From Planctomycetota bacterium (lineage in GTDB: Bacteria; Planctomycetota; Phycisphaerae; UBA1845), in contig JAJRPG010000051.1 of the NCBI GenBank assembly GCA_024280855.1, positions 107-64,106 on the forward strand: a DNA stretch of 64,000 nt. The letters run 5' to 3'. Shown here in pieces: positions 7,530 to 17,294 of the stretch. The stretch's first letter is position 1. Each line of letters starts with the position of its first letter. Position numbers and translations under genes: made by a program. Below the pieces are notes generated by a model that made no database searches, had not been told where the DNA came from, and worked only from the letters and a program-made list of their open reading frames with translations.

Positions 7530-9737
7530 ATGTTTGAAAACCGCCTGCGCATCTTGTTATCTGTTTTAGCGATCGCATGTCTGGGCGTATTCCTCCGGTT
7601 AGCACAGTTGCAACTTGTCAGGGCTGATTACTACACGCAACGGGCAAACCGTTCGCTTATCTCGCGGCCTAAGTCATTACCGTTTTTACGCGGGCGAATT
7701 CTCGATCGAACTGGCGAGGTCCTCGTCGCGGATACGCCGACATGGGATGTGTGCATTGATTATGCCATGATAGCGGCTTCGGTCGATTCAGAAGCTAAGG
7801 CGTGGTCGAGTTTGTTGCGCAGATACCGCAGGCGTTATGCGAAAAACTCAGATGGTACGATGGCGACGGTTGAGCAGCGTCGCGAGCGCCTACAAGAAGA
7901 CATGGAGGGCAGTTGGCGGGCGCTGGTTCAATTCGCTCAGCGTCTTGGCCAACCCGTGACGCTGGAGGATATTCGTTCGCGCGGTTTAGATATATATGAA
8001 CAAGTGCAGCGAATTCGACGTGCAGTGTCTAGGAGGCGAGGTTTCGATAGTCCCGTCGCGGAGGAAAGGATAGCTCAGACGATCATTCCGGATATCGGTG
8101 CCGACCATCAGGCACTATGGGAAGATCAATTTTCCGCTTGGCCTTGGGTGCATGTTCAGGCATCTACTAAAAGGCGGTGCCTGGGAGACGCTACGCCAAT
8201 CGCGCATGTGCTTGGCCGCATGGGGCGTGTGGATGCCGAGACGGTTTCGGCTGACCCTCAAGCGGATAACCCTTTTGCGAAATACTTAGCCAGCGAAAAG
8301 CACGGCATTAGCGGTGTCGAGTATGCAGCGGAGGATTTATTGCGCGGTCGGCGCGGTCAGATTGTTTCCAGCAGAGATGGCACGGTCACGGAAGATGTCC
8401 CCGCGGCTCATGGGCTGGATGTTAAGTTGACGATTGATGCGCCGCTTCAACGTCAGCTTTATGATATGTTAGGCGAGGTGGTCGAATCTGTGCCGCTGTC
8501 ATCAGGCGGTGCGATTGTGGTTTTGGATGTAGCTTCGCGCGACGTGCTTTCTCTCGTGTCATATCCGTCTTACGATCCGAATCGGTTTAGCGAATTATAT
8601 TCTGTCTTGCGTGATGATACGGATCGGCTGCCATTACGGTTTCGGGCTTTGTCTTCCCGGTACGCGCCGGGGTCAACGATTAAGCCGTTGTCGTGTTTGG
8701 CTGGGCTATACAGTGGAAAAATTTCGTTGGATACGCGGGAAACATGTACAGGTTATATGTTTTCTGAAAAGCGCGATGGTTGGCGATGTTGGGAAATTCA
8801 CGGGACGGGTATACGCAAAGCGCATGGCTCTATCAACGTGACCGAGGCGCTAACTGGTAGTTGCAACATTTTTATGTATCGTCTTGGCGAGCGCGTGGGT
8901 GTGGACGGATTGTGTAGCGTGTTTGATATGGTGGGCGTGGGGCGTGGTAGTGGTATTGGATTGCGAGAAGATAACCCAGGCATCAATCCGACCCCAGCTT
9001 GGCTATCGTCTCATTTGAATCGGACTACAACGAAGGCGCATAGCAGGCTTTTTGCGATGGGGCAGGGCGAGATTTCGTTGACACCTATTCAGGTGGCGAA
9101 TCTCATGGCTACTTATGCTTCGGGGAGATATAAGCCGGTGACGCTGATTCGGCGACGTAAAGATCATCCAGAATGGCGGCTGCCGGGTTCGGATGCGCAG
9201 TGGTTAGCTATTCGGCGCGGCATTTTCGGCGTGACCAACGACCCGGATGGCACGGCTTATAAGTATGCAAATTACGTTCGCGATGGTTACGCACTAGCGG
9301 GTAAGACGGGGTCAGCCACCGCGACACCCTGGCCTACGGCGTATAAAATTCCTTATATGGAAGAAGACGGGTCGCATCGGGAAGTGGTTTTAGCGGAAGG
9401 AGCGCGCGGGCCTGCGATCAAACGGTTTGAGCGAGAGTTTCCTGATGCGGTGTATGACAAGAAAGACGTCAAAGCCGTGCGATATTGGCCCGTAGAGAAA
9501 CCGCCGGAAGGGCAGAAATATTCGCACGCATGGTTTGGTGGCTATCTTCAGCCTTTGGGCGCAGACGGTAAACCTGATTGGCGACAACAGCCTCCGGTTG
9601 CGTTTGCGGTGCTGATAGAGTTTGGCGGTAGTGGCGGACGGACCAGTGGGCCTTTGGCGAAACGGGTGTGTGACGCGATTTTGGATCGATTCGGAAGTGA
9701 CATAGCGACGACGCTTAGAAAAAGTAGTGGTTATTGA
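7530..9737 (+). CDS. mrdA: Penicillin-binding protein 2 (elongasome transpeptidase), with an enlarged N-terminal module
   Basis: N-terminal TM anchor and transpeptidase motifs SxxK (PGSTIKP), SxN (TGSCN) and KTG (GKTGSA). It is followed by rodA. At 735 aa it is about 100 aa longer than typical PBP2. Confidence 0.9.
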   Translation: MFENRLRILLSVLAIACLGVFLRLAQLQLVRADYYTQRANRSLISRPKSLPFLRGRILDRTGEVLVADTPTWDVCIDYAMIAASVDSEAKAWSSLLRRYRRRYAKNSDGTMATVEQRRERLQEDMEGSWRALVQFAQRLGQPVTLEDIRSRGLDIYEQVQRIRRAVSRRRGFDSPVAEERIAQTIIPDIGADHQALWEDQFSAWPWVHVQASTKRRCLGDATPIAHVLGRMGRVDAETVSADPQADNPFAKYLASEKHGISGVEYAAEDLLRGRRGQIVSSRDGTVTEDVPAAHGLDVKLTIDAPLQRQLYDMLGEVVESVPLSSGGAIVVLDVASRDVLSLVSYPSYDPNRFSELYSVLRDDTDRLPLRFRALSSRYAPGSTIKPLSCLAGLYSGKISLDTRETCTGYMFSEKRDGWRCWEIHGTGIRKAHGSINVTEALTGSCNIFMYRLGERVGVDGLCSVFDMVGVGRGSGIGLREDNPGINPTPAWLSSHLNRTTTKAHSRLFAMGQGEISLTPIQVANLMATYASGRYKPVTLIRRRKDHPEWRLPGSDAQWLAIRRGIFGVTNDPDGTAYKYANYVRDGYALAGKTGSATATPWPTAYKIPYMEEDGSHREVVLAEGARGPAIKRFEREFPDAVYDKKDVKAVRYWPVEKPPEGQKYSHAWFGGYLQPLGADGKPDWRQQPPVAFAVLIEFGGSGGRTSGPLAKRVCDAILDRFGSDIATTLRKSSGY

Positions 9738-11008: not shown

Positions 11009-11168
11009 CGAGGCATGGGCATCGTCCTGACGTGCATCAGATATCTACAGCCATAATTTAATTCAACATTCGTGTCAAAGACTAACAAGAACTTGTCTAT
11101 AAATTTCCCGGAAATGTCTTCGTGCTGTGTCAGTATTTCTCAACGTGTGAAAAAGTTTAATAAATTTC

Positions 11169-11197
11169 TTGAGAAGTGTATTATCGGGGTCTAAAAT
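11169..11197 (+). promoter_or_regulatory. Candidate sigma70-like promoter for the Cys-rich repeat gene
   Basis: TTGAGA, a 17-nt spacer, then TAAAAT, about 80 nt upstream of the start in an AT-rich 265-bp spacer. A 13-nt palindrome ATTTCCCGGAAAT lies at 11103-11115. The consensus is borrowed from model bacteria. Confidence 0.3.
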
Positions 11198-11273
11198 TGC
11201 AAAAGGGGGAAGTGTCTATTCGTAAGAGGCTTCAAATTAGCGTCACTGTCTTTGCATATCACAAAGGATCAAT

Positions 11274-14192
11274 TTGATGAACCGACTAGCCGAGCGTTCG
11301 CGTATTATGTGTAAACTTTTCTTGGCCGTGTGGCTGTTGCCTGTCTTGATGTTGGCCTCTGTCAGTAGCGCGCAAGTGACTTGTGATACTGACGCGCAGT
11401 GTGACGACGGGATTGCTTGCACGCGCGATTTCTGTGTTCAAAATAGCTGTATAAATTTACAAAAATGCTGCCAGTCTAACGCCGACTGCGATGACCTCAA
11501 CAGTTGCACCAAAGATGAATGTGTTAATGGCCAATGTTTCAATCAACCAGATACGACTTTATCTAACTGTTGTCAGTTCGATGATGAGTGCGACGACGGT
11601 AGCCCTTGTACGGAAGACGCATGCATTGACGGCTTATGCCGCTTCATTCCTAATCCAACTTTACTAGGATGCTGCGTGGATGACCCAGGGTGCGACGACG
11701 GAAATCTTTGCACGGATGACGTTTGTGTAAACAATAGTTGCCAACATATTCTCGGGCCAGGATGCTGCCAGTTTAATGAAGATTGTCAGGATGATGATAG
11801 CTGCACGGTAGACCGTTGCAATAATGGCCAATGCGAAAACATTTTTGTTTGCTGTGATGTTGATTTTGATTGCGATGATGGCAATGCGTGTACGGTTGAT
11901 AAGTGTAACGATCAACATTGTGCTCATGAGCCTGACTTGAGCATCCCTGGATGTTGCCAATTTAACCGGGATTGCGATGACCGTAATGTATGCACGCGCG
12001 ATTATTGCGTCGATGGCTCTTGCCGAAATGCTGTTGACCCAAATAATCCAGACTGTTGTACAACAGATTTAGATTGTGATGACGCCGACAATTGCACGAG
12101 AGATGTTTGCGGCGCCAATGGCCAATGTCGTCATGCGTATACCTGCTGCACCAACAACGCACAGTGCAATGACAATGATCCATGCACGGCTGATAGATGT
12201 TTGAATGGGCAGTGCTTTAGCCGAGACATCTGCTGTAAAACGGATCAAGATTGCGACGATTTTAATGCCTGCACTATTGACACTTGCAGCATGGATCGCT
12301 GCCGGCACAGGCCGGATGTGAACAATCCTGAATGCTGCCGATACGACGACGATTGTGATGATGGCTTGCCCTGCACACGCGATATTTGCCGAGATCATTT
12401 TTGCGTTTCTCTGCCCGATCCAAATTTGCAAGGATGTTGCCGCGACGATACTGACTGTGACGATGGAAACGAATGTACTGTGGAAAGATGTCGCGCGGAT
12501 GGCCAATGCGAGCGAACATTCATTTGCTGTCAAACAAATGTAGATTGTAACGATGACAATCCATGCACCGTAGACGTATGTGATTTGAATACGGGTTCTT
12601 GTCGAAATGTCCAAGACCCAACACGGCCAAATTGTTGCCAAACAACCGCTGATTGCGACGACGCCAATGATTGTACGCGTGATGCGTGTATAAACGGTAA
12701 TTGCGTCCACGCGCGGGTATGTTGCCAGGCTGACATTGACTGCGATGATAACGATTCCTGCACGGTTGATGTTTGTGACGCAGGAAGATGTCGCCATCGT
12801 GACACTTGTTGTTCTGCGACGACGGATTGCGACGACGGGAACAGATGCACGTTAGATTTCTGCTCGAATGGCCGATGCGAACATCAATTCATATGTTGTC
12901 GCAGCGCATTAGACTGTGATGATGGCGATTCATGCACCCGCGACTTCTGCGAGAATGGCGTCTGCCGTCATGCCACAAATCCGAATAATCCAGACTGTTG
13001 CAGTCAAGACCTTGACTGTGAAGATAACGACCGCTGCACGCTGGACAGATGCGTGAGTGGGCGATGTGTGCAGCGCCGTGTGTGCTGTGATACGACAGCC
13101 GATTGTGACGACGGTGATGACTGTACGCGAGATATTTGCGAGTGCAATGAATGTCGGCACGTCGAAGTATGTTGCTCAACAGATGCTCAGTGCGACGACA
13201 ATGATCCTTGCACCCGCGAAATATGCAATAATGGTGTGTGCGAACGAAAGTTCATCTGCTGTCAGGCTAACGACGACTGCGACGACGGAAACGCTTGTAC
13301 TATAGACCGATGTAATCATGGCCGATGTGAAAGCGTACTTGATACGACAAACCCGAATTGCTGTAATGCGGATGCCGACTGCGAAGATGGCGATCGTTGT
13401 ACGTTGGATGTGTGCGTCAATGGCTTCTGTCGGCAGCGACAATTGTGTTGTGTTTCTGACGATCAGTGCGACGACAATGACGATTGCACGGTGGACGTTT
13501 GTGATAATGGCCGATGTCGAAGAAGGAACGTTTGCTGCCTGAGCGCGGCTGATTGTGAAGACAATAATGTTTGCACGATTGAAGATTGTGTCAACGGGGC
13601 GTGCGTGCGAAGGTTTAATACGAATGATCCGAACTGTTGCCTGTCCGACACTAATTGCGACGACAATCGGCCTTGCACCCGTGATGTCTGTGTTGCAGGT
13701 ATTTGTCGGCACGATTTCTTGTGCTGCCAAAGTGATGCCGATTGTGATGACAATGATAATTGTACAAGAGATTTTTGCGATGCAGGATTCTGCAAGCATG
13801 TTGATCCATTGCCCGGCACATCAACATGTTGCCGAGTGGATGCGGAATGCGATGACAATGACGCATGTACGGTAGACTATTGCCGTGATAACGTTTGCGT
13901 TCATCCGATGCGTGATACGGATCAAGATGGCGTTTGTGATTTGAAAGACAATTGCGTTTTCATCTTTAATCCTGGCCAAGCCGATTGTGACAACGACGGC
14001 AAAGGCGATCGATGCGATCCAGATATTGACAATGATGGCGTGCCTAATGCGATTGACATTTGCGACTTCACGCCTGCGGGCGCAGATGTGCAGCGTAATG
14101 GTACGTTGCTAACGGACACGGATGGCGATTGCGATTCGGACTTAGAGGACATCGCCATCTGGCAACGAGAAATTACCGGGCCGGGCAAATAG
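11274..14192 (+). CDS. Secreted cysteine-rich repeat protein: 27 tandem CC-x(4,5)-DCDD-x3-CT-x-D-x-C modules plus C-terminal thrombospondin-type-3-like calcium repeats
   Basis: Signal peptide ([23 protein letters not shown]). By manual parsing there are 27 units of 29-36 aa with six conserved Cys each. The C-terminus [14 protein letters not shown]...[22 protein letters not shown] is TSP3-like, and it ends in a dockerin/EF-hand-like [17 protein letters not shown]. Confidence 0.85.
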
Positions 14193-14237: not shown

Positions 14238-14282
14238 AAGGGCGTTTCAGATCAACAAAGCCTGGAACGCCCTTTGTTTTTG
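14238..14282 (+). terminator. Rho-independent terminator after the Cys-rich gene
   Basis: The stem AAGGGCGTTTCAG / CTGGAACGCCCTT (13 bp, one G-U pair, 11-nt loop) is followed by TGTTTTTGG. It lies between the convergent Cys-rich gene and ribD. Confidence 0.7.
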
Positions 14283-15674: not shown

Positions 15675-16403
15675 CTAGGCCTGCGCTCGTTTACCCAAGC
15701 TTGATGTAAACAATAAGATGATGACGCCGCAAACTAAAGCAGAATCTGCGATGTTGAACACCCAAGGCCAAGCCTGTTGGCCGCCGATGACGGGAACCCA
15801 CGCTGGCAAGTTAGGCACGAATTTAATGAAGTCGCGTACGACACCTTGTTGATGGTGCGTGACTTCTGACCTCACAAATGATTGCGTGTGCGTACCTTCA
15901 GGCCAAACGCCGATGCGGATGTTCGGTGCGTCCTCATCAGAAACAATTTTCCCAATGACCACCCGTTGCTGCGCGTTGGTGCCGTCTTTCATGCTGATAA
16001 TGTCAGCTTTGATGAACGTTCGGTCGTACATGTTTCCGACCGCGCCAGCTAAGATCAATCCTAACGCAATGTGTAATACGAACGATCGCTTCGGGCTTTG
16101 TACGAAAAGATAAACGACAAAGGCTAACGCTAGAATGGAGGCTACGATAAAAAGCTCTGTTTGCCCGCTGAATGATCCGAATACCGCGCCGTCGTTAAGA
16201 GAACGGCGGAACATTAGCCATCCATCGATCATGCTGCGCGGTTCGTTTGGCTCAATGTTAGAAAAAGCCCAATGTTTGGACCAGAGGTCCAACCACACGA
16301 AGACAATAGCCGTGACCCAGAATCGGCCATGAGACCATAGATGAGTAAGCGCTCGTGTGTCTTCGTGTTGTGATGGCGATTCCAATGGTTGTGTATCATT
16401 CAT
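15675..16403 (-). CDS. lspA: Lipoprotein signal peptidase II (LspA) with a roughly 55-60 aa insertion
   Basis: LspA motifs SLNDGAVFG, GAVGNMYDR, VVRDFIKF and WPWVFNIADSAL are present. At 242 aa it is longer than the usual roughly 165 aa. Confidence 0.8.
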   Translation of the reverse strand: MNDTQPLESPSQHEDTRALTHLWSHGRFWVTAIVFVWLDLWSKHWAFSNIEPNEPRSMIDGWLMFRRSLNDGAVFGSFSGQTELFIVASILALAFVVYLFVQSPKRSFVLHIALGLILAGAVGNMYDRTFIKADIISMKDGTNAQQRVVIGKIVSDEDAPNIRIGVWPEGTHTQSFVRSEVTHHQQGVVRDFIKFVPNLPAWVPVIGGQQAWPWVFNIADSALVCGVIILLFTSSLGKRAQA

Positions 16404-16424: not shown

Positions 16425-17294
16425 CTAGGCCCGGCCTTCGTCTCGTGCCCGCGCGTGATCGATGCAATACTTTGCCCAAGGTTTTGCATGTAGCCGAGCA
16501 TGGCTTATGGTTTTGTGAGTGGCTAGGCAAATGCCGTATGTTTTGTTCTTAATGCGCGACAAGGCATCGTCGATTTCACGAATCCTTTTTTGTTCGTTGA
16601 CGATTAGACCAAGCGTGAATTCATGTTCCCAATTGTCAGTACCCAGGTCAGCCATGTGTACCGGGGCGGATGAGTGTTCCGCGCCGCCTGACCCTGCAGC
16701 TTGTGCAGACGAACCAGACATGTGATTGACGTCGCCGGTGAGTTCGTCTCGTTTTTGAATTAACAGCTTCTTATATTCTCGTAGCTCTTTGGCGCGTAGT
16801 GATGTCTTGGGAGTTTTTCGTTGTTCAATAAATTGAATTGGATCTTCCGTAGTGGCGGCTGTGCTTGTGTGATTGTTAGCTAAACGCGACGACGCTGGCG
16901 TTTTCTTGGGGATATTCATGCCGACGCGAACAGCCAGCTGAGGCTTGGTAGGTTTTTTCTTAGCGATGTTAACCTTTTTGGATGAAGCCACTACTTTCTT
17001 TTTGGCAACCTTCTTAGTTTTTTTCTTTGAAATAGCCGTCAAAGTCCGTTTAGCAGTTTTCTTCGTTACTTTTTTGGTAGCTGACTTTTTAGTTGTAGAT
17101 TTTTTTCTATTTGCCGTGGTCGCCGCCTTCTTCTTCGTCACCTTTTTCTTGGTAGGCTTTTTCGCATTGGACGCCGCAGCGGATTTTGCGGATTTTTTGA
17201 CCTTCTTTGCAGCACGGACACTGGAACTGCCCGTTTTCTTTTTCTTGGAAACGCGACGCTTAGAAGTCGAAGTTTTTTTCACTTTTTTGGCCAA
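16425..17294 (-). CDS. DksA/TraR-family protein with a Lys-rich histone-H1-like N-terminal tail
   Basis: The C-terminal half has DksA-like blocks (DLGTDNWEHEFTLGL, IREIDDALSRIKNKTYGIC...ISHARLHAKPWAKYCIDHAR). The N-terminal roughly 115 aa are K/A/T/S-rich (KKVKKTSTSKRRVSKKKKTGSS...). Confidence 0.65.
   Translation of the reverse strand: MAKKVKKTSTSKRRVSKKKKTGSSSVRAAKKVKKSAKSAAASNAKKPTKKKVTKKKAATTANRKKSTTKKSATKKVTKKTAKRTLTAISKKKTKKVAKKKVVASSKKVNIAKKKPTKPQLAVRVGMNIPKKTPASSRLANNHTSTAATTEDPIQFIEQRKTPKTSLRAKELREYKKLLIQKRDELTGDVNHMSGSSAQAAGSGGAEHSSAPVHMADLGTDNWEHEFTLGLIVNEQKRIREIDDALSRIKNKTYGICLATHKTISHARLHAKPWAKYCIDHARARDEGRA

Follow-up and report, generated by a model that had tools for sequence, protein, structure and literature searches.

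Within the window, meaning the whole 64,000-nucleotide stretch of contig JAJRPG010000051.1 (GenBank assembly GCA_024280855.1, a Planctomycetota bacterium of the Phycisphaerae lineage UBA1845) that was analysed, one gene encodes a 972-residue protein built almost entirely from tandem six-cysteine modules of the Pfam family Dicty_CTDC (PF00526), known as the slime-mold repeat, and ending in calcium-binding repeats of the thrombospondin type 3 (TSP3) kind. The gene is real and conserved. On balance, we lean towards reading its product as a Sec-exported, disulfide-stapled, calcium-binding structural rod or fibre that belongs to the envelope or to the extracellular matrix. An initial annotation of the same stretch had described a secreted protein of this general kind, and its details are taken up below where the evidence bears on them. 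The parts of the gene, with the evidence for each, are as follows.

11274..14192, plus strand: coding sequence of 972 residues with its stop codon at 14190-14192 (open reading frame list, orthologue alignment, conserved start region).
11274..11372, plus strand: Sec-type signal peptide, residues 1-33 (inspection of the sequence and orthologue alignment).
11382..13937, plus strand: array of 27 Dicty_CTDC-type six-cysteine modules, residues 37-888 (Pfam PF00526, cysteine parse, AlphaFold2).
13908..14078, plus strand: TSP3 calcium-binding repeats, residues 879-935, overlapping the closing cysteine C888 of module 27 (phmmer against the PDB, Pfam TSP_3).
14112..14189, plus strand: acidic tail, residues 947-972, with one EF-hand-like DxDxDxD loop and then a probable helix (orthologue conservation).

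The putative signal peptide, recognised by inspection, has a basic n-region (RLAERSR), a hydrophobic core, and a probable cleavage site after SSA. The same n/h/c pattern is kept in two orthologues, where the cleavage motifs are ANA and VSA, in agreement with the proposal of an export signal followed by six-cysteine modules. The mature protein (residues 34-972) has a computed mass of about 103 kDa, an isoelectric point of about 4.05, and a formal charge of about -135. Cysteine accounts for 169 (17.4%) and aspartate for 182 (18.7%) of the 972 residues, and aspartate and glutamate together make up 21% of the protein.

The array occupies 852 of the 939 mature residues. It comprises 26 units that open with a CC doublet and one N-terminal unit that lacks it, which gives the 27 modules counted in the initial annotation. 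The core C-[DN]-D-x-[ND]-x-C-T-x-D-x-C-x(3-6)-C recurs in tandem in all 27 units with minor substitutions, and in the phase discussed below each module of 29-36 residues has the pattern C-x5-C-x5-C-x4-C-x4/5-C-x4..12-C. The 25 distances from one CC to the next are 29 (eleven times), 30 (twice), 31, 34 (nine times), 35, and 36 residues, and thus form the two length classes noticed earlier, of 29-31 and 34-36 residues. The linker P-[DN]-x-x-N-P-x that had been ascribed to the longer class fits DPNNPD, DVNNPE, and NPNNPD but not HEPDLSIPG, so it is an approximate description and holds for some long units only.

The modules have diverged from each other considerably. In an alignment of 46 five-module rows, the cysteines are invariant and the aspartate and threonine positions are at least 90% conserved; outside cysteine, aspartate, and threonine, the modules are mutually about 35% identical. 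At the DNA level, the 24-residue module cores have a mean identity of 56% and a maximum of 74%, the longest exact repeat within the gene is 18 nt, and Tandem Repeats Finder reported nothing in the DNA of the gene, the repeats being too diverged. Unit lengths such as 34, 34, 31, 29 and 34, 34, 30, 29 hint at a higher-order super-repeat, but no lag stands out in the module-to-module identities. Judged by these comparisons, the repeats are old and diverged, with no periodicity pointing to a recent block duplication.

Membership in the family follows from the Pfam comparison. The whole protein matches PF00526 at 127.3 bits (E 1.7e-37, cut-off 27) in 16 stretches, and an internal piece of 135 residues alone reaches 41.2 bits, which bears out the kinship to the Dictyostelium CTDC repeat that had been proposed from the motif. 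The 24 positions of the model run from one residue before the third cysteine of the unit to just past the sixth, as at residues 518-537. Scanning of the whole protein and of the C-terminus against Pfam brought up no families besides Dicty_CTDC and TSP_3; of the three families named in the initial annotation, these two were matched with HMMER and dockerin was not. A scan of NCBIfam, which includes the Myxococcus cysteine-rich repeat, gave 0 families above E 1.

Homologues carry at least three types of unit: a four-cysteine unit of 23-24 residues, as long as the Pfam model, a 33-residue unit with its two extra cysteines split (C-x2-C), and the CC unit of 29-36 residues. At least five units of the CC type occur in 67 of the 120 best homologues, one of which has 18. 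The six-cysteine CC unit is therefore real, as the initial annotation held in calling it a distinct, larger unit; on this comparison, it is a widespread bacterial variant of the Dicty_CTDC family and not a new module. A word-indexed search found at least 1,563 homologues, and a full HMMER scan matched 15,593, 3,663, and 433 cluster representatives (50% identity) at E<=1e-3, 1e-10, and 1e-30, respectively, some of which align by the TSP3 tail alone. Among the named sources are Myxococcota, Bacteroidota, Planctomycetota, Candidatus Azambacteria, and some archaeal metagenome-assembled genomes (MAGs). Relatives at 26-29% identity were seen in a Candidatus Woesearchaeota MAG (L003) and a Candidatus ainarchaeum sp. 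MAG (L010); either the repeat family would reach DPANN-type archaea, or these two contigs would be mis-binned.

Elsewhere, CTDC arrays are combined with Peptidase_M64, InhA-like_MAM, Big_7/13, PKD, He_PIG, VWA, DUF11, a type IX secretion system (T9SS) tail, Dockerin_1, and CBM96, all of which are secreted or surface types. Examples are P0001 (Peptidase_M64 and Big_7 with 26 CC-type units), P0009 (PKD with 24 units), and P0091 (VWA and DUF11 with a T9SS tail). These multidomain proteins share the six-cysteine CC module of the window protein at 36-47% identity over long stretches, and their arrays are of comparable length. In contrast, the window protein consists of the array and the calcium tail only, with no domain of an enzymatic, Ig-like, or sorting type. 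Its only close relatives are two orthologues from MAGs, one of which is also represented by a fragment, P0121.

The open-access papers on this family that the search covered report Dictyostelium work, and none describes the structure or function of a bacterial protein, which agrees with the earlier remark that no characterised bacterial example was known. Besides these, the family is mentioned once in bacteria, where it forms a variable domain at the N-terminus of teneurin-like proteins (bioRxiv 10.1101/2025.11.11.687626), and a 2021 survey places it among the repeat families without known structure (PMC8078820).

A model of the fold was obtained with AlphaFold2 for residues 453-605, using as input 46 five-module segments taken from the paralogous modules of the protein itself and from homologues. 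The mean predicted local distance difference test score (pLDDT) is 94.1, and 142 of the 153 residues score 90 or more. Each module is predicted to form a four-residue helix around the third cysteine, followed by a two-stranded hairpin that holds cysteines 4-6. The predicted template modelling score of the five-module model is 0.54, as would be expected of small modules that follow each other in a chain without long-range contacts. Foldseek found no significant match to the five-module model among 350,542 PDB chains; the best was the heavy chain of the Entamoeba Gal/GalNAc lectin (E 0.069). Scorpion-toxin-like matches were dismissed as tiny local overlaps. Against BFVD, one protein alone matched significantly, namely a Pithovirus LCPAC103 transmembrane protein (E 1.8e-4, 22% identity), which is probably the same repeat in an amoeba virus. 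By this structural comparison, CTDC-like repeats seem to be present in amoeba-infecting giant viruses, in addition to amoebae and bacteria. Weaker BFVD matches came from Orpheovirus and Pandoravirus.

The predicted fold bears on whether the protein could instead act as a periplasmic metal or calcium buffer, in which partly reduced cysteines would chelate soft metals, or about 200 acidic residues would store Ca2+ or nucleate mineral. The high cysteine and acidic content (17% and 21%) and the net charge of about -135 are in keeping with such a store, and CC and CxC motifs also occur in metallothioneins. On the other hand, the cysteine spacing is that of a folded disulfide-rich domain, AlphaFold2 predicts regular secondary structure with a pLDDT of 94, and metallothioneins lack such conserved hairpins. 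Moreover, the protein is exported to an oxidising compartment, and its family is fused to ordinary extracellular domains, all of which makes a buffer improbable.

The way in which the cysteines may pair depends on where one module ends and the next begins. The initial annotation let each module start at CC; counted in this manner, the first unit has five cysteines, and C888 at the opposite end belongs to no unit. When the boundary is placed between the two cysteines of each doublet instead (C37 to C888), all 27 units hold exactly six cysteines, with the exception of unit 19, which has seven. Of 62 clean arrays in homologues that follow a cysteine-free lead-in of 20 residues, 52 open with one C only, which fits the first C of each doublet belonging to the preceding module. 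This cysteine book-keeping, together with the array starts, suggests that each structural unit opens with the latter cysteine of a CC doublet and closes with the leading cysteine of the doublet that follows, and that a module start at CC is probably shifted by one cysteine. Over 236 homologues, the junctions between cores are of the types CC (1,551), empty (602), C-x-C (340), and single C (205), and about 89% of about 2,800 junctions hold 0 or 2 cysteines. The simplest topology would combine the two core disulfides of the four-cysteine unit with a C2(i)-C1(i+1) staple closing each module, an arrangement to which we give roughly even odds on the basis of the cysteine pattern. One peptide bond would then be all that links each covalently closed module to its neighbour.

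The seventh cysteine of unit 19 (13086-13172, residues 605-633) lies in the motif CECNEC and is kept in all three orthologous sequences. It makes the number of mature cysteines odd (167) in both orthologues, whereas the window protein has 168 because of C905. From its conservation, the extra cysteine is a possible free or intermolecular cysteine. The four remaining conserved cysteines, C894, C914, C930, and C954, are placed as the DNC...GDxC pairs of the TSP3 repeats.

A bolder extension, which we regard as rather doubtful, would make the 27 modules covalently closed rings (C2 to the next C1) of an experimentally unsolved fold, linked like a chain into a calcium-loaded nanorod with a length of tens of nanometres. 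Such a rod would be a dedicated fibre of the Phycisphaerae envelope or matrix; it would be the bacterial equivalent of the slime-sheath matrix proteins of Amoebozoa, and these might have evolved from it, with the conserved seventh cysteine of unit 19 as an intermolecular cross-link.

At the C-terminus, the sequence changes to TSP3 repeats. Residues 880-893 fit DxDxDGxxDxxDNC exactly, and Pfam TSP_3 (PF02412) matches the last 100 residues at 42 bits (E 7.4e-11, cut-off 25); this family was missed when the whole protein was scanned and found when the C-terminus was scanned alone. A phmmer search of the PDB retrieved COMP (3fby, E 8.6e-21), TSP-2 (2rhp, E 4.4e-20), and TSP-1 (E 2.6e-10), with alignments that span the type 3 repeats only, and the PDB sequence search was otherwise without a significant match. 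By these matches, residues 879-935 are bona fide TSP3 repeats, two to three in number, as had been recognised from the motif. Compared with thrombospondin and COMP (PF02412; 3fby, 2rhp, 1yo8, 1ux6), the same DxDxDGxxDxxDNC...GDxCD motifs and cysteine placement are present in residues 879-935. However, the window protein has only about two to three repeats and lacks a coiled coil, an EGF domain, and the C-terminal lectin-like domain of thrombospondins. Its assignment to the thrombospondin/COMP family was rejected, as only the type 3 repeats are matched; the protein borrows the TSP3 repeat, as many bacterial surface proteins do.

Most positions of the last 26 residues are identical in both orthologues. 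The initial annotation had read this tail as dockerin-like, which does not hold: Dockerin_1 (PF00404) gave no Pfam match at E<=10 with the last 100 residues or at E<=0.01 with the last 50, and no dockerin or EF-hand family was found by Pfam for the last 26. In addition, there is a single loop-helix at residues 948-968, whereas a type I dockerin requires two tandem calcium loops with their helices. A single EF-hand-like calcium loop is a reasonable description of the tail from its motif. Homology searches with the C-terminal 96 residues and with a three-sequence profile of the tail retrieved nothing beyond a fragment of an orthologue and two short TSP3 proteins, and so gave no support for a wide occurrence of the motif DxDGDCDVDLxDxAxF...TGP. 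Residues 917-970, a 54-residue segment that includes the tail, match, at 46% identity, a segment of a further CTDC protein, P0080, that directly follows its signal peptide, and this segment thus behaves as a small mobile module.

That the gene is real and not an assembly artefact or a non-coding frame is established by its orthologues. Two turned up when one genome per species was scanned, in the Phycisphaerae MAG OFTM182 (L001; 972 residues, 78% identity) and the Planctomycetota MAG Dive96_bin2.90 (L002; 75% identity). All three proteins have 26 CC doublets and an identical series of 25 unit lengths, and 167 of the 169 cysteines of the window protein are conserved across the three; a signal-peptide cysteine and C905 of the tail are not. 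For the window compared with L001, the proportions of nonsynonymous and synonymous differences are 0.12 (pN) and 0.71 (pS, saturated), with a dN/dS of about 0.06, and the gene is under strong purifying selection. The repetitive nature of the sequence is all that would speak for an assembly artefact or a non-expressed frame in a low-complexity region. Because three independent assemblies are colinear with identical architecture and the repeats are diverged (56% DNA identity), the collapse or expansion of repeats that the initial annotation had named as a refutation is excluded. Together with the purifying selection and the conservation of the start region and terminator, this leaves an artefact with a negligible chance.

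In the protein databases, the sole addition was the 116-residue fragment P0121, identical to the C-terminus of L001, and the metagenome collection, scanned for more orthologues and for variation in repeat number, yielded none. The lineage thus appears to be rare in public data.

The annotated start is TTG at 11274, directly followed by ATG at 11277. Since the ATG and an AAGGA sequence 9 nt upstream of it are kept in both orthologues, ATG 11277 is probably the true start. In L002, the longest open reading frame begins 25 codons upstream of the conserved ATG (7929-8003) and runs through the conserved leader; this extension is probably an over-extended call, with the true start aligning with window position 11277. 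Long open reading frames that lie antisense or out of frame within 11664-13875 (minus strand and the other plus-strand frames) are up to 242 residues long and rich in isoleucine, valine, alanine, and threonine, the largest antisense example being 12069..12797 (242 residues). As genes, they were rejected as by-products of the cysteine and aspartate codon composition.

The structural role that we favour for the protein derives from the surface-type partner domains found elsewhere, the architecture of EcmA and EcmB, and the strict conservation of module number. The mature chain would present 27 uninterrupted Dicty_CTDC modules, each a helix and a β-hairpin held by three disulfides, and would end in two to three TSP3 repeats and one EF-hand-like loop-helix. 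It would form a stiff, protease-resistant, calcium-loaded rod in the envelope or matrix, with the C-terminal calcium module as its attachment or interaction end. Other bacterial surface proteins use CTDC arrays in a comparable way, as spacers beside peptidase, Ig-like, VWA, and sorting domains. The earlier suggestion of a calcium-stabilised rod or adhesin is plausible in this light; that the disulfides form and how they connect, that the modules bind calcium, and the shape, location, and function of the rod are all inferred.

EcmA and EcmB of Dictyostelium consist of a signal peptide and cysteine-rich repeats (PMC4406040); a second paper enters them under 'Matrix' as Dicty_CTDC proteins (PMC4931340). 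The window protein resembles them (PF00526 / IPR001673) in having a signal peptide followed by almost nothing but tandem CTDC repeats, and in the core [DE]-C-D-D-x-N-x-C-T-x-D-x-C. Nevertheless, the Dictyostelium units are of the short four-cysteine kind, whereas the window protein, from a bacterial host of the Phycisphaerae, has six-cysteine units of 29-36 residues with an added CC doublet and linker. It also has the C-terminal TSP3 and EF-hand-like calcium module, and lacks PA14 or any other amoebozoan partner domain.

Several points weigh against a calcium-loaded, covalently closed rod of the envelope or matrix. Besides the signal peptide, the 972 residues gave no sign of an anchor, a sorting domain, or an enzymatic domain, and periplasmic and extracellular locations both fit. 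In homologues, the array ends in CC in 107 of 112 clean cases, so that one cysteine needs a downstream partner under the proposed phase, and the connectivity is not settled. The AlphaFold2 model of residues 817-972, made with a seven-row alignment, has a low-confidence pLDDT of 48, with a helix at residues 957-968. Finally, calcium binding by the CTDC modules themselves, as opposed to the tail, would rest on conserved aspartate and asparagine residues and a weak match to LDL-receptor class A (E 0.051, not significant). The latter is likewise a six-cysteine, aspartate-rich module of about 40 residues, but its cysteine spacing differs, and it may serve as an analogy only for a small, disulfide-rich, acidic module that cages Ca2+.

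Alternatively, the protein could be a multivalent adhesin or lectin-like binder, each of the 27 modules presenting a surface for polysaccharide, mineral, or host or prey. One homologue pairs a CTDC array with a carbohydrate-binding-type domain (CBM96/disaggregatase), and some Dictyostelium cysteine-rich coat proteins have been reported to bind cellulose. The best PDB fold match, the cysteine-rich heavy chain of the Entamoeba Gal/GalNAc lectin, points the same way, but is not significant. Unlike most carbohydrate-binding modules, the window protein has only 2 tryptophans and 4 tyrosines in 972 residues and no aromatic residue conserved within the module, and the inter-module identity of about 35% outside cysteine, aspartate, and threonine argues against one specific binding site repeated along the chain. 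We thus consider an adhesin unlikely, though it deserves more weight than a buffer. The adhesin, the buffer, and the cell-shape role discussed next are all less well supported than the structural rod.

The gene appears to be a transcription unit of its own, delimited by the following two features.

11009..11273, plus strand: conserved non-coding upstream region, with a candidate promoter and 5' leader (conservation across the window, L001, and L002).
14240..14281, plus strand: intrinsic terminator, with a G+C-rich stem of 12 bp (14240-14251 / 14261-14272) and a T-tract at 14273-14281 (folding).

The upstream spacer of 265 bp has a GC content of 0.43-0.45, compared with 0.50-0.54 in the flanking genes, and is thus lower in GC as first described. 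Its mean column identity is 78% across the window, L002 (7737-8003), and L001 (2880-3172). The leader is as conserved as coding DNA, though the synonymous sites of the latter are saturated. A -35-like TTGAGA (11169-11174) is separated by 17 nt from a -10-like TAAAAT (11192-11197), with TTGAGA / TAACAT in the orthologues, and the AAGGA ribosome-binding site lies at 11263-11267. The sigma70-like promoter that had been proposed is supported in so far as this site is conserved, but promoter-like sites in the region are at chance level (5 found and 5.1 expected). TGTCT(A/T)T motifs occur at 11094, 11213, and about 11247, and TGTCTAT showed no enrichment window-wide. Other conserved blocks of the leader include CTAATTTAATTCA, TGTCAAAGAC, and GGGGGAAGTGTCTATTCG. 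The conservation suggests regulator binding sites or a structured 5' untranslated region; Rfam gave no match on the conserved leader and the gene.

Downstream, the strong terminator of the initial annotation is confirmed by folding, as a 102-nt region folds at -42.5 kcal/mol (z = -3.95) with a hairpin at 14240-14272 whose loop is 9-11 nt. A simple terminator scan had missed the hairpin since the loop was 11 nt, and folding recovered it. The terminator stands between convergent genes and may be bidirectional, given that its upstream A-rich arm can pair with the T-tract. The convergent genes in the window are ribD-like, lspA, and DksA-like, and open reading frames of matching size, order, and strand, matched by layout only, lie downstream of the gene in both orthologous loci, so the arrangement looks conserved.

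Upstream, the gene directly follows rodA in the window and in L002, and the initial annotation had remarked on its placement after the elongasome genes mreD-mrdA-rodA. This placement, together with the cysteine-rich YTV proteins of planctomycetal envelopes (PMC8567305), would be the ground for viewing the protein as an elongasome partner, that is, a cell-wall or shape-related envelope protein. In L001, however, the adjacent upstream gene encodes an SBF-family transporter in divergent orientation, and the upstream region is still conserved, which indicates that this region travels with the gene and bears out the proposal of a stand-alone unit. The gene also has its own promoter-like site. Since the rodA linkage is absent in L001, the elongasome neighbourhood carries no functional message, and a link to the elongasome operon was rejected for want of synteny. 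The YTV proteins are cysteine-rich, secreted, and tied to the protein-rich planctomycetal envelope, but are reported to be restricted to Planctomycetales, with none in early-branching groups (PMC8567305). They resemble the window protein as cysteine-rich secreted proteins of the same phylum; nonetheless, the repeat is unrelated, with no YTV domain (PF07639) among the Pfam matches at E<=1. A role in cell shape is therefore, if anything, even more improbable than a metal or calcium buffer.

Two of the neighbouring genes have features of their own. The DksA/TraR zinc-finger protein (16425-17294, minus strand, 289 residues) has a lysine-, alanine-, and threonine-rich, histone-H1-like N-terminal extension of about 120 residues, and similar open reading frames stand at the matching position in L001 (296 residues) and L002 (301 residues). 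In the signal peptidase II (LspA) homologue (15675-16403, minus strand, 242 residues), the Pfam profile of 142 positions is spread over residues 31-232, which points to about 60 inserted residues relative to a typical LspA.

As far as classification is concerned, the protein is one more member of a catalogued family, assigned by a routine Pfam match, and no long-standing question is opened by it. Its value lies in the family. CTDC-repeat proteins form a very large secreted bacterial set with thousands of clusters at 50% identity, and the open-access literature covered by the search holds no study of structure or function for a bacterial one. The window gene is near the purest natural example, with 27 modules and a calcium tail that are conserved module for module between genomes. 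It would thus be a convenient protein for solving the fold and disulfide topology of the repeat and for testing whether such arrays act as rigid spacers, and it bears on how a matrix domain linked to amoebozoan multicellularity is related to an abundant bacterial one.

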